Shown here piece after piece: positions 26,558-64,000 of a stretch of DNA of 64,000 nucleotides (position 1 is its first letter; each line of letters opens with the position of its first letter). Made by a program: the position numbers and the translations under genes. The notes beneath the pieces are model-generated. The model did no database searches. It was not told the DNA's origin and saw only the letters and a list, made by a program, of their open reading frames with translations. Source of the DNA: Escherichia coli (lineage in GTDB: Bacteria > Pseudomonadota > Gammaproteobacteria > Enterobacterales > Enterobacteriaceae); the NCBI RefSeq assembly GCF_003019035.1, contig NZ_CP027447.1. One strand, given 5' to 3'.

Positions 26558-26633
26558 GCCGATATAGCTCAGTTGGTAGAGCAGCGCATTCGTAATGCGA
26601 AGGTCGTAGGTTCGACTCCTATTATCGGCACCA
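26558..26633 (+). tRNA. thrW: tRNA-Thr (CGT anticodon)
   Basis: 76-nt sequence GCCGATATAGCTCAGTTGGTAGAGCAGCGCATTCGTAATGCGAAGGTCGTAGGTTCGACTCCTATTATCGGCACCA with cloverleaf pairing and CCA end; downstream of proA. Confidence 0.9.
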
Positions 26634-26647
26634 TTAAAATCAATAAG

Positions 26648-27811
26648 TTACACATCATTAGTACCTTCCTTATTTTTTGACTGGGACAAATTTGGGACCG
26701 ATGGGTTCAGGATCGAGTCTATTTGCCGTGCGTGTTCGGTAAGGTGATTAGGTGCAAGGTGAGCATATCGACGAACCATTTCGATAGACTCCCAGCCTCC
26801 CATTTCCTGTAACACTGACAACGGGACTCCGGCTTGAACCAGCCAACTTGCCCAGGTGTGTCTCAAGTCGTGAAATCTGAAATCATCAATACCAGCCCGT
26901 CTCAGCGCCGCTTTCCAGGCTGTGTTTGCGTCATACCGCATCTTCCTTACTGTTGGCGCTTTCGTTCCGTCTGGTTTGGTACAGCTTTCCTTGTACACAA
27001 ATACCCAACGGTGATGATTCCCGATTTGTTTTTTCAATACGCGACATGCAGTATCATTCAGCGCAACGCCAATTGCGCGGTTTGATTTACTCTCTTCCGG
27101 GTTTATCCATGCCACCCGGCGCTGCATATCTATTTGTTGCCATTCAAGGTTGATGATGTTCGAGCGTCTTAAGCCTGTTGCCAGTGCAAATTCAACAACA
27201 GACTTTAATGGCTCCGGACATTCATCAATCAGCCTTTGTGCTTCATGGGGTTCCAGCCAGCGGATCCGTTTATTCTTTGGTTGAGGCACTTTAATAATTG
27301 GTGCCTTATCCAGCATTTTCCATTCACGCTCTGCGGCTCTTAGTAGGGCCTTTATAAATGAAAGATGCGTAGCCTTCGTTGCAACGGACGCTGGTTTTGG
27401 CGTGTATTCTGGAACAGGTTTCCCTTTTTTTCTGCATGCTTCTGCCCTGAGTTTCCAGTTTTCCTCATGACGCCGGTTCGTCATTTTCTGCATTGCTGAA
27501 TAAATTTTTGATTCAGTAATGTCTCTTAGTTGCATTCCTGCGAAATGTTGAAGCCAGAATCCGATCCGGCTTTTGTCATCGTCCAGTGATTTTTTATGTG
27601 CTTTCTCTTCAAGCCACCTGACACACGCTTCCTCGAACGTTATATCAGGTATTTCACCAAGTTTGCTGACCCGCCATGCTTCGGCCTTTAGCTTGTCATG
27701 GAGTTCTGTCGCCTGCCTTTTGTCCTTTGTTCCAAGAGACTGTTTAAATCTTTTACCGTTCGGCAATGTGAAACTGGCGTACCATATTTCACCTCTGCGG
27801 AAGAGTGACAT
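26648..27811 (-). CDS. int: Tyrosine integrase (P22-like)
   Basis: 387-aa ORF closely resembling P22 Int from memory ([41 protein letters not shown]...); C-terminal catalytic motifs HDLRHTWAS and VRRYAHL. Confidence 0.9.
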
Positions 27812-28038
27812 TTTCTTTCCTCTGTTATGCCATCACCCGCGCTCACCTGGACAGTATGCAGCGGAGACTGAAGAGCCGCAATGCAGGCTTGTCGTGTTGT
27901 GAGGTAAGGAGATTTATTCTTAGTGGGATCTTTGCGTGTTGCCTGAAGACGCCCTGTGCGTATCCAGTTAATAGCAGTCGGTCTGGATATCTTGAGAAAA
28001 TGACAGGCCTCATCGAGTGTGAGGCTGTATGGCTCCAT
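27688..28038 (-). CDS. xis: Excisionase
   Basis: ORF-track 27688..28122; internal ATG at 28038 with GAGGTGA RBS; P22 Xis-like ([30 protein letters not shown]); overlaps int start. Confidence 0.7.
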
Positions 28039-28382
28039 TATTTCACCTCTTGCTGTGACATTGTTGAAAAATGGATACCAGCTCGTTGCTGCCAGACGAT
28101 CCAACCGAGAGTCATATCCCATGCCATGTATTCGTTATCGCCGTTTTTTGCTCTCCGACGATCGACTGTTTTACCGAAACGCTTTTCCATAAATAATTCA
28201 TAGGCTACGCGTTCATCTGGCTCAACTTCCAGAGATGCCAGTGCAATCCGTGCCAGTTCTAAATCATTTTCAAGCTCAGCGCGAATCTCAGCGAATGCAC
28301 TCTGTGTTAAGGCGAACTCAATGCTCTGCACTTTATTCCGTGCGCGCTCAAGCAGTGCATGGTAGTTAATTTCGGTTGTCAT
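28038..28382 (-). CDS. Hypothetical early-left protein (YfdT position)
   Basis: 114-aa ORF, translationally coupled to neighbours. Confidence 0.4.
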   Translation of the reverse strand: MTTEINYHALLERARNKVQSIEFALTQSAFAEIRAELENDLELARIALASLEVEPDERVAYELFMEKRFGKTVDRRRAKNGDNEYMAWDMTLGWIVWQQRAGIHFSTMSQQEVK

Positions 28383-29257
28383 ACCCCTACCTCTTCGAAT
28401 TCCAATTCCAATTGATCACCCCAGATTTCACATGACTCTGAACACGAACCGGTATCGAATCGCCTGGCCTGTACCATCGCCTGATACAAATTTCTGTAGT
28501 CGCTGTTGGCAGACATTCTGGCAATTCCGTCAAGCGTCAGGTGACCACGGTACATAATGTCTTTACCTGTTCTGCGATGACCATCCCTGACGTGTTTGCC
28601 TGTAACCAGCTCATTAAAAACTCGCATCAGACCTGGTTCGTCTTTACATGCAAGCCCCAGCTTTTGCGTTGACTTTTTGATGCAGAAAACACAGTTCCCG
28701 AGATGCTCCGGGATTTGCAAATCAAAAGGTTGTTTTCGCCACCACCGGATAACATCCGACTTATCAAAATCTGACAGCTCGGCAAGATACCGGACGCCCG
28801 ATTTCGGTTTCAGCCTACGGGGTTCGTCTGCACGAATACCCAGCCATGTGATGTAATTACCTCGCCCGAAATGGTTATCGCAGTATTTCGTGAAAGGGAT
28901 GAGTTTTAGCCTGTCAGTACAGAACGCGCCGCCGATGTATGGCGTGCCGTACTTTTTAACCATGTCCATAAACGGTTTAAGCACCGGCATTCGTGTCTGA
29001 ATATCCTTTGGCTCCCATTCTGTATAACCATTTGGCTGCCCAAGCTCAGGATTTATATCGACCTGTAACACAGTTAGTGGTATGTCCCAGAACTTTACAA
29101 CCTCCCGGATAAAGCGGTATGTCAGCGGATGTTCGCAACCGGTATCCATAAAGATGTAGCAGACGTTATTGCCAGCCTTTCTTTGTTCTTCCATCAGGTG
29201 AACAAGATATGCGGATGTTCTCCCGCCAGAAAAACTAACTACATGAGTTATGCACAT
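28379..29257 (-). CDS. PAPS-reductase-like PP-loop ATPase family protein (YfdS position)
   Basis: ORF-track 28379..29374; likely start at ATG 29257 (MCITHVVSFSGGRTSAYLV); SGGxxS PP-loop motif; Cys-rich C-terminus. Confidence 0.6.
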   Translation of the reverse strand: MCITHVVSFSGGRTSAYLVHLMEEQRKAGNNVCYIFMDTGCEHPLTYRFIREVVKFWDIPLTVLQVDINPELGQPNGYTEWEPKDIQTRMPVLKPFMDMVKKYGTPYIGGAFCTDRLKLIPFTKYCDNHFGRGNYITWLGIRADEPRRLKPKSGVRYLAELSDFDKSDVIRWWRKQPFDLQIPEHLGNCVFCIKKSTQKLGLACKDEPGLMRVFNELVTGKHVRDGHRRTGKDIMYRGHLTLDGIARMSANSDYRNLYQAMVQARRFDTGSCSESCEIWGDQLELEFEEVGV

Positions 29258-29784
29258 TTGCGTAATTCCGATAACTCGTTGAAGCGTTCCATAAACATCC
29301 CGTAGGCATGGCCCGGTGCCAGTGGAATAACTTTGAACATCTCTGTTGCCGGGATACCTTCCAGTACAGGCCATAAAGAGCCATCATCAAGCCCGAGATC
29401 ACGGCGTTCGGTTGCCAGCATAATGAGATCGGCATATTTCACTGGCGTGCTCATAACAGGAGGTAACCCGTATTTCTCACGGATTACTGCATCTATTTTT
29501 TCTTCCATCCGTTTATAGTCAGGAAGAAGGCGTTTCAGTGGTGCGGGGATGTCCTGGCAATACGCTTCTGTTGCATCATGCATTAACGCTTCAAAAGCAA
29601 ATTCCTGCGGCACCAGCTGGCTGCAAAGCACCGCATGTTGGGCGACACTGTAGAAGTGAGAAAGATGACCGGCAAAGCGGCAGATATTTGAAAGGGAAAC
29701 CGCGATATCGTTAATCACGATGTCGTCTTTATTTATCTTGTCATAATAAAAATGCTTCCCGGAAAAAGTTTTAATAAATGACAT
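29248..29784 (-). CDS. HD-domain phosphohydrolase (YfdR-like 5'-deoxynucleotidase)
   Basis: ORF-track 29248..29811; ATG at 29784 with GGAGAA RBS gives 178 aa; HD motif region (...LMHDATEAY...). Confidence 0.65.
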   Translation of the reverse strand: MSFIKTFSGKHFYYDKINKDDIVINDIAVSLSNICRFAGHLSHFYSVAQHAVLCSQLVPQEFAFEALMHDATEAYCQDIPAPLKRLLPDYKRMEEKIDAVIREKYGLPPVMSTPVKYADLIMLATERRDLGLDDGSLWPVLEGIPATEMFKVIPLAPGHAYGMFMERFNELSELRKCA

Positions 29785-63010: not shown

Positions 63011-63036
63011 TCCTGCTTTTGTCAGGGAGATCTACC

Positions 63037-63591
63037 ATGCTTATTGGCTATGTACGTGTGTCAACAAATGACCAGAACACAGATCTACAACGTAATGCGC
63101 TGAACTGTGCAGGATGCGAGCTGATTTTTGAAGACAAGATAAGCGGTACAAAGTCCGAAAGGCCGGGACTGAAAAAACTGCTCAGGACATTATCGGCAGG
63201 TGACACTCTGGTTGTCTGGAAGCTGGATCGGCTAGGGCGTAGTATGCGGCATCTGGTCATTCTGGTTGAGGAGTTGCGCGAACGTGGCGTTAATTTTCGC
63301 AGCCTGACGGATGCTATTGATACCAGCACACCGATGGGGCGTTTTTTCTTTCATGTGATGGGTGCCCTGGCTGAAATGGAACGAGAACTGATTGTTGAAC
63401 GAACAAAAGCTGGACTGGAAGCTGCTCGCGCACAGGGACGAATTGGTGGACGTCGTCCCAAACTTACACCAGAACAATGGGCGCAGGCCGGGCGATTAAT
63501 TGCATCAGGCGTTCCTCGCCAGAAGGTGGCGATCATCTATGATGTTGGTATATCGACACTGTATAAGAAGTTTCCGGTCGGAGATAAATGA
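63037..63591 (+). CDS. pin: DNA invertase, serine recombinase (Hin/Gin/Pin family)
   Basis: ORF-track 63001..63591; ATG at 63037 with GGGAGA RBS; MLIGYVRVSTNDQNTDLQRNAL... resolvase N-domain with catalytic Ser and C-terminal HTH; symbol assumes the e14-type Pin orthologue. Confidence 0.85.
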   Translation: MLIGYVRVSTNDQNTDLQRNALNCAGCELIFEDKISGTKSERPGLKKLLRTLSAGDTLVVWKLDRLGRSMRHLVILVEELRERGVNFRSLTDAIDTSTPMGRFFFHVMGALAEMERELIVERTKAGLEAARAQGRIGGRRPKLTPEQWAQAGRLIASGVPRQKVAIIYDVGISTLYKKFPVGDK

Positions 63592-63593
63592 AA

Positions 63594-63630
63594 CCGTAGC
63601 ACGTCGTATGCAAGATCGTGCTGCGGTTTA
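63594..63630. terminator. Hairpin between convergent invertase and downstream ORF
   Basis: ccgtagcacg-(13 nt)-cgtgctgcgg (one mismatch) followed by ttta. Confidence 0.4.
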
Positions 63631-63648
63631 TGCTTATCACTTAAAGAC

Positions 63649-64000
63649 TCAAAAATTAGGTGAGTAACGGACCGGGGACATAGCTCCTTTTTTTCTTAAT
63701 TCATCTGGTATTTTTTTTCCAAGATAAAGATTTGCTATTTCAGGTGGGGCTTCTCGGCCTTCAAAACCATAGCGAGAACTTTGTGTTGCCTCAAAGTCAG
63801 GATCCTCGTCCCAGTATTTCATCGTAGGGAAATTTTCACGTGTTGATTTGAGCCATTTATCAGCAATGAAAACCCCCCGAACGATTCCCCTTACAGTAGC
63901 AAGAATAACTTCTGCTTGGCTGGCGCGAGAGACATTAATGCGCCAGCTAAATCGAACCGCATCATAAAGCTCTGAATCCTTTGCACTTCTGTTAACGGAA
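63649..64000 (-). CDS. Hypothetical protein, C-terminal 116 codons; start beyond window
   Basis: Open frame on minus strand from window edge to TGA at 63649-63651 (...[69 protein letters not shown]); absent from ORF track because it has no start codon in the window. Confidence 0.4.

Follow-up and report, generated by a model that had tools for sequence, protein, structure and literature searches.

What sort of element occupies the thrW tRNA gene of this Escherichia coli chromosome, is it a whole phage, and what does it carry besides phage genes? The DNA analysed is a single stretch of 64,000 nucleotides (NCBI RefSeq assembly GCF_003019035.1, contig NZ_CP027447.1; hereafter "the window"), and the part of it that runs from position 26588 to beyond position 64000 is, on its sequence, very probably a temperate myovirus prophage, apparently complete, that is integrated in thrW and belongs to the lineage of the Shigella flexneri phages SfV, SfI, SfII and SfIV and of the element e14. 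The mosaic architecture of this prophage is not new, having been published for all five of these, and the papers on SfI and SfIV describe thrW integration, Myoviridae morphology, HK97-family head proteins, e14 similarity and a lambdoid early region. As a phage it adds one more mosaic to a lineage whose description began in 2002. Its noteworthy content is its cargo, which an earlier, preliminary description of this DNA did not include: a pair of genes inserted after the late antiterminator gene Q, which we regard as a candidate RexAB-type exclusion system, and an anti-phage gene toward its right end.

Integration into thrW and relationship to SfV, SfII and e14

The left boundary of the prophage is defined by the following features.

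26558-26633 (+), thrW tRNA-Thr(CGU) gene (ARAGORN; Rfam tRNA, 71.8 bits)
26588-26633 (+), attL 46-bp core ATTCGTAATGCGAAGGTCGTAGGTTCGACTCCTATTATCGGCACCA, the final 46 bases of the tRNA gene
26648-27811 (-), P22/SfV-type tyrosine integrase, 387 amino acids (aa), beginning 15 bases past the tRNA (Pfam Phage_integrase, E 3e-48)
27688-28122 (-), excisionase Xis (HTH_17), 98% identical to the SfII and SfV Xis proteins over its full length

The sole tRNA gene found in the window is thrW, and Rfam finds no RNA family other than tRNA on the prophage. The upstream neighbours of the tRNA gene, proB and proA, directly adjoin it, which is the thrW context of strain K-12. By sequence comparison the 46-bp core is identical to the attP sites of P22 and SfV, and the same 46 bases are the published attP/attL/attR core of SfI, SfII, SfV, SfX and P22; the nucleotide match to SfV and SfII starts precisely at 26588. 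Because the phage att core supplies the 3' end of the tRNA, thrW remains intact, and the arrangement of an exact core within an intact tRNA gene with int adjacent is that of the SfV/SfI/SfII/SfIV group. The integrase is 99.5% identical in amino acid sequence to SfII Int, 98.4% to SfV Int and 90% to P22 Int over 387 of 387 aa, in agreement with the preliminary description, which had recognized a P22-like integrase abutting the thrW 3' end. The same description had placed an element CP4-53 at thrW in K-12; the actual K-12 element there is the cryptic prophage CP4-6, and the name used seems to be a blend of CP4-6 and CPS-53. This int/xis module beside thrW is common in the species: 782 of 5426 complete E. 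coli genomes (~14%) have a place that covers at least 80% of window positions 24000-30000 (proB, proA, thrW and int/xis).

When the prophage was compared by megablast with 50,697 phage records, the top matches to both of its halves were S. flexneri phages SfV, SfIV, SfII and SfI. Block-by-block alignment to the complete SfV and SfII genomes divides it as follows.

26588-28247, att core, int and xis: SfV and SfII, 98%
28247-29250, 3'-phosphoadenosine 5'-phosphosulfate (PAPS) reductase-like gene: neither SfV nor SfII
29250-33827, early-left genes, cI and cro: SfV, 97%
33215-35574, CII-like gene and replication: SfII, 97%
35571-38109, nin-type genes: SfV and SfII
38100-38456, Q: SfII type
38419-40050, cargo pair: neither SfV nor SfII
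40050-42980, methylase, S, R and Rz: SfV, 91.5%
43874-61200, cos, terminase, head, and tail to the fibre N-terminus: SfII, 97.9%, in a single 17.3-kb block
61200-64000, variable fibre end, invertible P segment, pin and cargo: neither SfV nor SfII

The int/xis, immunity, nin and lysis modules are 91-98% identical to SfV and/or SfII. The gene layout consists of a leftward early operon followed by a single long rightward block, and the genes of its early part are these.

28038-32061 (-), early-left accessory operon: PAPS-reductase-like protein, YfdR HD phosphatase, YfdQ/DUF2303, orf226 and orf98 (Pfam)
32234-32908 (-), CI repressor, a LexA-like S24 autopeptidase (Peptidase_S24, E 1.5e-26)
32999-33199 (+), Cro, with a YdaS-type helix-turn-helix, 98.5% identical to SfV Cro
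33243-35080 (+), CII-like YmfL, YmfM and O-like replication initiator (Phage_CP76, HTH_36/DnaD_N)
35083-38097 (+), nin-like region: PerC-like YfdN, a protein consisting only of a LexA DNA-binding domain, RusA, KilA-N and DUF968/HNH (Pfam)
38100-38456 (+), late antiterminator Q, short SfII type (Phage_antitermQ, E 2.5e-45), 75% identical to SfII Q

The CI protein is 99.6% identical to SfV CI, and the e14 genes ymfK-ymfT-ymfL-ymfM match the immunity region of the window at 97.9% nucleotide identity; from these similarities its immunity specificity is predicted to be of the SfV/e14 type. YmfL, YmfM and the O-like initiator are 98-99.7% identical to the products of SfII genes 39-41. In relatives the NCBI Prokaryotic Genome Annotation Pipeline gives these and other genes of the prophage the e14-derived names ymfK, ymfT, ymfL, ymfR, ymfQ and pinE, plus yfdN, yfdQ, yfdR and yfdT. 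The yfd names (yfdN, yfdQ, yfdR, yfdT) are those of CPS-53 genes. The rightward block continues with the lysis, head and tail genes.

40549-41601 (+), N6/N4 DNA methyltransferase (Pfam N6_N4_Mtase; PADLOC MTase_II), 99% identical to SfV orf48
41678-43014 (+), lysis cassette, with a holin S of the lambda S family (Phage_holin_3_1)
42008-42484 (+), lambda R-type endolysin (lambda lysozyme 1AM7, E 8e-95)
42468-42860 (+), Rz of the lysis cassette (by comparison with SfV and SfII)
42745-43014 (+), embedded Rz1 lipoprotein (reading frame and lipobox LLSGC)
43523-46223 (+), HNH endonuclease, cos region, P27-type TerS (43999-44493) and TerL (Pfam HNH, Terminase_4, TerL ATPase and nuclease)
46417-49506 (+), portal, S78 prohead protease and HK97-family major capsid protein (Pfam)
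49556-51527 (+), head-tail connector, head closure, neck and tail terminator (Pfam, PHROGs)
51536-55788 (+), DUF2635 protein (Mu gp38-like), sheath, tube, assembly chaperone and tape measure (Phage_sheath_1/1C, Tail_tube, Phage_TAC_7, PhageMin_Tail)
55807-60846 (+), Mu-like baseplate: homologues of gp43 (DNA circulation), gp44 hub, gp45 spike, gp46, gp47/J and gp48 (Pfam DNA_circ_N, GpP-like, Phage_Mu_Gp45, GP46, Baseplate_J and Phage_Mu_Gp48)

The ends of the linear SfV genome record map to 43931/43932, between HNH and terS, and the cos site is therefore placed at about that position. The portal, protease and capsid proteins are of the SfII type, being 98.8-100% identical to those of SfII and only 25-28% identical to those of SfV; the capsid protein also matches solved HK97-family capsids (E 1.7e-75). 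The tail proteins encoded by 51536-55788 are 98-100% identical to those of both SfII and SfV. The lambdoid immunity, replication, nin and Q layout with an S/R/Rz/Rz1 cassette, and the combination of an HK97-type head with a Mu-like contractile tail, in the same gene order as in the type phages, are those of the SfV group. In all these modules the preliminary description had read the genes correctly: the lambdoid regulation that it named (cI/cro, Q and rusA) is present together with a CII-family gene and the O-like, KilA-N and DUF968 genes, as are its lambda R-like endolysin with Rz and Rz1, its HNH, terminase, portal, protease and capsid genes of HK97-like type, and its contractile tail of Mu/e14 type, in which the sheath, tube and gp43 to gp48 homologues were found.

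The prophage is like SfII, SfV, SfI and SfIV in its thrW core, its Int and Xis (98-99% aa identity), its lambdoid layout, its HNH-cos-terminase order, its HK97-type head and its Mu-type tail, and it differs from these Shigella phages in its fibre C-terminus and chaperone and in having a P segment, pin and the anti-phage gene PD-T4-3 in place of gtrABC; relative to SfV and SfII it also lacks dam and has the extra PAPS-reductase-like gene. With e14 it shares, besides the immunity region, terL-portal and baseplate-ymfQ fragments (96-97% identical) and the gene order ymfQ, fibre, tfa, tfa', fibre', pin and then a defence gene, which in e14 is mcrA. However, e14 is integrated in icd by means of another integrase, has variable fibre ends of other sequence and has lost most of its replication, lysis, head and tail genes; to judge from its sequence, it plainly arose by deletions from a phage of this kind, and the prophage described here would be its intact counterpart and indicate what e14 once was. 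The likeness to P22 is confined to the integration module (Int 90% identical over its full length, an identical 46-bp core and cargo, gtrABC, beside attP); P22 is a podovirus that uses pac packaging and whose head and tail genes are unrelated. Two deposited E. coli phage records, vB_EcoM-720R4 and vB_EcoM-689R6, carry the same structural module; a literature search for vB_EcoM-720R4 found nothing.

Is the prophage intact? When its 53 predicted genes were translated and compared with SfV and SfII proteins, every gene with a counterpart aligned from end to end, mostly at 94-100% identity; none of the 40-odd shared genes is shortened relative to those of the viable phages SfII and SfV, with identities of 75-100%, and no internal stops or truncations were found in the genes so compared. 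Neither the inactivating lesions in essential genes nor the attR inside the window that the preliminary description had named as findings that would overturn it were found. The full-length genes include int, xis, cI, cro, Q and the lysis, terminase, portal, capsid and tail genes, which argues against a defective, cryptic prophage like e14 or CP4-6 that looks complete and no longer excises or makes particles; decay of the e14 type takes the form of large deletions and of fusions such as ymfN, none of which is present here, and the lesions that do occur are limited to the unexpressed alternative fibre set. A cryptic state would nevertheless fit the position of the right end outside the window, the five frameshifts in the silent half of the P segment, the loss of dam relative to SfV and SfII, a relative at the same site whose integrase is frameshifted and which adjoins remains of another phage, and the fact that the K-12 thrW element is itself a cryptic prophage, and on balance we consider it unlikely.

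Several points count against a complete phage of this lineage, which we prefer. The right 3-4 kb, including attR, lie outside the window, so that completeness and excision are not seen, and as sequenced the five frameshifts leave only one fibre orientation working, unless they are consensus errors. Neither gtrABC nor oac is in the visible sequence, in which there is no match to the gtr region of SfV or SfII. No genome in the collections has the exact combination of modules: at least 80% of the left 25 kb is common to 24 genomes, and the best of them covers 88% of it. Inducibility and contractile-tailed virions are predicted from the relatives, from the full-length genes and from the deposited phages vB_EcoM-720R4 and vB_EcoM-689R6. 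The mean G+C content of the prophage is 51.2%, against 52.4% for the host flank, with sharp local dips.

If the genes act as those of the relatives do, the P22-type Int and Xis would recombine the 46-bp attP core with the thrW 3' end and regenerate the tRNA, and the LexA-like self-cleaving CI, with SfV/e14 immunity, would keep the prophage silent. SOS-induced cleavage of CI would release Cro, the CII-like gene, O-like replication and the nin-type genes, after which Q would antiterminate late transcription starting downstream of the cargo insert. HNH, TerS and TerL would cut cos and fill an HK97-type head, which would join a Mu-type contractile tail, and the holin, R-type endolysin and Rz/Rz1 would lyse the cell.

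The two-gene insert after Q

Between Q and the methyltransferase gene lies an insert that is present in neither SfV nor SfII and whose two genes have a G+C content of 30.6%.

39004-39930 (-), cargo gene 1, soluble protein of 308 aa whose predicted fold is RexA-like
38469-39017 (-), cargo gene 2, membrane protein of 182 aa for which hydropathy predicts four transmembrane helices, overlapping gene 1 by 14 nucleotides

The pair separates Q from the terminator that comes after it in SfV. The AlphaFold2 model of the gene 2 protein consists of long helices (predicted local distance difference test score 78). Neither protein has a match in Pfam, PADLOC or NCBIfam, in PHROGs they match only a family of unknown function, and a literature search found no paper that names them. 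The pair is nonetheless abundant, being present in at least 218 complete E. coli genomes, where it is annotated as hypothetical, and homologues of the 308-aa protein occur across the Enterobacterales; Salmonella, Klebsiella, Yersinia, Serratia, Cronobacter and Gilliamella are among the genera with homologues, and the family of the membrane partner is larger (103 clusters).

In prophages of Yersinia ruckeri (49% identity) and Kosakonia (58%) the pair occupies the identical slot, convergent with Q. A Cronobacter pair, 29% identical, belongs to an island that also carries genes for a P4-type primase and Ogr/Delta, where its neighbours are either a ParA-like ATPase and a HEPN gene pair or CbtA/CbeA. 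We had considered this island as an instance of the "P4 psu-int hotspot" of Rousset et al., a designation that was dropped because there is no psu at the locus. The pairing of the two genes is kept in Yersinia, Kosakonia, Cronobacter and Gilliamella, that is, across genera and types of element, and the pair has moved between lambdoid prophages, in which it always occupies the place after Q, and islands that carry a P4-type primase.

Further structural matches of the 308-aa protein are to CHL4/CENP-N, RdgC and IML3, which are the published structural relatives of RexA itself. At the level of sequence no homology to lambda RexA or RexB was found: hmmsearch against the Protein Data Bank gave none, and the hhalign probability was 0.5% for RexA and 0.15% for RexB. 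The insert has the two components of a RexAB-type system, a soluble protein of predicted RexA fold and, immediately downstream, a small multi-pass membrane partner. It resembles the RexAB systems of lambda, of the actinophages Sbash and CarolAnn and of Pseudomonas putida (RexABpp) in being a prophage-borne operon for a soluble protein of ~300 aa and then a four-helix membrane protein, and is unlike lambda RexAB in lying between Q and the late region and not beside cI. The predicted fold, the architecture of the partner, the conserved pairing and the mobility come directly from these comparisons and models, and from them we infer the predicted function: the chances seem to us evenly balanced that the pair is an undescribed RexAB-type abortive-infection or exclusion system, orphan in sequence. 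Exclusion of other phages is in our view the most likely role of the insert, which lies between Q and the late promoter region.

The slot itself is variable. SfV has nothing there, and SfII (35581-37195) holds an unrelated pair, a soluble 340-aa protein and a four-helix membrane protein of 194 aa, which matches PDC-M53A/B, a candidate defence system in PADLOC. We tested whether this pair is homologous to the one in the window, and it is not. Because SfII has the PDC-M53 pair in it, the slot after Q behaves as a defence-gene slot in the SfV/e14 lineage. If the pair in the window is of RexAB type, the SfV/e14 backbone would have at least two exchangeable defence slots, the one after Q and another between pin and attR, whose content varies among the members (gtrABC, mcrA, RES-domain genes, or PD-T4-3 together with a retron). 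The way in which RexAB detects infection is a matter of debate, and a second, abundant enterobacterial family with this fold and the same architecture of the partner would offer an independent test system.

The invertible fibre segment and the cargo slot beside attP

To the right of position 61200, where the identity of the fibre gene to SfV and SfII ends, the window contains the following features.

60850-61491 (+), tail fibre, 213 aa (Gp53-like_C), with a constant N-terminus up to the crossover site and an expressed, gp53-like variable C-terminus
61139-62970, invertible P segment, with inverted crossover sites TTGGTTTGGGAGAAG at 61139 and CTTCTCCCAAACCAA at 62956
61513-61953 (+), fibre assembly chaperone in the expressed orientation (Caudo_TAP, E 2e-38)
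61925-62955 (-), silent alternative set: tfa' (61925-62518) and an alternative fibre C-terminus (62518-62955) (Caudo_TAP and Collar fragments)
63037-63591 (+), Pin serine invertase, 184 aa, intact (Resolvase, E 1e-51, and HTH_7)
63649-64000 (-), 3' part of the PD-T4-3 (GIY-YIG) anti-phage gene, which runs off the window edge (PADLOC, E 2e-55, profile positions 141-255 of 256)

The crossover sites (61139-61153 and 62956-62970) are contained in a 25-nucleotide inverted repeat (61134-61158 and 62951-62975), whose left arm lies inside the fibre gene at the junction of its constant and variable parts and whose right arm adjoins the serine recombinase gene. They are the same as those of e14; of the published e14 repeats the right one is matched exactly and the left one differs at 1 of 16 positions. 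The pin gene, of the Din family of serine invertases, is 92% identical to e14 pinE in nucleotide sequence. Inversion of the e14 segment has been demonstrated experimentally, and in the relative strain 19SZHZ886Rt the homologous segment is in the opposite orientation. The preliminary description had recognized the invertible fibre segment, of which the inverted repeat, the invertase gene and both fibre/chaperone sets, the silent one broken, are present, and Pin would flip this 1.8-kb segment of e14 type and so exchange the receptor-binding C-terminal domain of the fibre together with its chaperone.

Both alternative fibre C-terminus/chaperone sets are present, in opposite orientation, and the silent set is broken by five single-C deletions in runs of C at 62179, 62181, 62319, 62321 and 62736, which disrupt tfa' and the alternative fibre end. 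In-silico inversion gives a truncated fibre of 178 aa, and one of 248 aa with a tail-collar domain once the five C residues are restored. The twelve closest relatives listed (92-99% identity) all have 706 bases where the window has 701, and none has these deletions; within 560 bases of the silent half there are five indels against two substitutions. Generally poor assembly was dismissed as the cause: comparison of the 24-kb host flank with a 98% identical relative revealed no frameshifting indel in genes, so that the assembly is not generally error-prone. Because an indel-heavy pattern is unlike usual natural decay, we lean toward a consensus error confined to this region, which would exist in both orientations in the culture, rather than private decay.

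We note that the fibre genes of SfV (at ~16955) and SfII (at ~17261) hold the left Pin crossover site AAACCTTGGTTTGGGAGAAG, yet neither phage has an invertase or another such site. The persistence of the left site in their fibre genes suggests that SfV and SfII descend from a phage with a P segment and that the site is a relic of a segment replaced by the gtr cassette.

Beyond pin, the final 116 codons of PD-T4-3 are in the window (63649-63999), and the family is published as an experimentally active defence against T-even phages. There is no second copy of the thrW 3' end within the window, so the preliminary description was right to place attR and the right boundary outside it; its further statement that any cargo of the right end also lies outside is not wholly right, as the PD-T4-3 gene occupies the window from 63649 on. 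Of the relatives, E. coli 2018-05-5CC is the closest at the right end, with 99.2% identity over 58000-64000. It has the GIY-YIG gene at full length (257 aa, PADLOC PD-T4-3, E 2e-140; positions 17655-18428 of the locus) and, beyond it, a gene for a 611-aa reverse transcriptase that matches type I-C retron RT-Toprim models (19140-20975); Rfam found no retron RNA at gathering score on this right end. The thrW core is repeated there 3.34 kb past the equivalent of base 64000, and is followed by a LysR-family fragment and the pao genes. Because the second core of 2018-05-5CC is at this distance, the length of the element in the window is estimated as ~40.7 kb, which falls inside the range of the family (37.1-41.5 kb).

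Strain 2018-05-5CC has peculiarities of its own. Positions 1-8208 of a second excerpt of its sequence hold tail and baseplate genes of another phage, which precede its SfV-type prophage where the window has proA and thrW, and the integrase of that prophage is frameshifted; a tandem array or a rearrangement could account for this.

The right part of the prophage has two other conceivable explanations. The occurrence of tandem arrays at the thrW site in a relative, the end of SfV/SfII similarity at 61200 and the fall in G+C content from 57% to 47% past 61000 could mean that the P segment, pin and PD-T4-3 are the remnant of an older, e14-like tandem element. However, the left crossover site is inside the prophage's own fibre gene, and the expressed C-terminus and chaperone are needed for the tail; vB_EcoM-720R4 holds the same fibre with convergent tfa and tfa', e14 has the same order (ymfQ-stf-tfa-tfa-stf-pin), and in 2018-05-5CC the att core follows the cargo with no integrase between them, all of which makes such a remnant highly improbable. 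Just as improbable is a serotype-converting phage whose gtrABC genes begin just past 64000. The characterized thrW-integrating members SfI, SfII, SfIV, SfV and P22 do all have gtrABC beside attP, and the ~3 kb that are not seen could accommodate it, but in the Shigella members gtr comes directly after fibre and tfa, where the window has the P segment, pin and PD-T4-3, and the relatives have other genes at this place, a retron reverse transcriptase and then the att core without gtr in 2018-05-5CC, and RES-domain and unknown genes in 19SZHZ886Rt.

We therefore return to a single prophage that extends past the window edge and ends in variable cargo. The interval from pin to the att core contains genes for RES-domain and unknown proteins in 19SZHZ886Rt and mcrA in e14, and the cargo adjacent to attP in the Shigella phages and P22 is gtrABC, with or without an acyltransferase; because relatives hold different genes there, the region beside attP is best described as an exchangeable cargo slot. 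Shigella serotype-converting phages and E. coli phages would then share one backbone, the attP side of which swaps O-antigen modification and anti-phage genes.

Host flank and minor differences from SfV and SfII

The first 24,000 bases of the window contain the lateral flagella (Flag-2) cluster, dinB, pepD, gpt, frsA, crl and phoE. No complete E. coli genome is more than 98.2% identical to this flank, and the window lacks the yafN-yafO toxin-antitoxin pair that the closest relative has after dinB, the junction lying near 15450.

Within the prophage, the dam gene that lies between the PerC-like gene and the LexA DNA-binding-domain gene in SfV and SfII is cleanly missing at the junction 35571-35574; the methyltransferase at 40549-41601, downstream of Q, differs from dam. 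A 106-aa protein encoded by 43107-43427, between Rz/Rz1 and HNH, is absent from SfV and SfII and has a weak, sub-threshold likeness to GrlR (Pfam E 4e-5; NCBIfam E 1e-9), which is a negative regulator of the type III secretion system of the locus of enterocyte effacement. Two proteins of the early-left operon also depart from the type phages. The PAPS-reductase-like protein (331 aa; 28379-29374, minus strand), which is not in SfV or SfII, weakly resembles DNA phosphorothioation proteins of the SspD/DndC type (PADLOC SspD-like, E 2e-14). The 226-aa open reading frame at 30802-31482 (minus strand) is fusion-like, its residues 1-96 resembling the N-terminus of the SfII gene 35 product and its residues 107-225 resembling SfV orf32.

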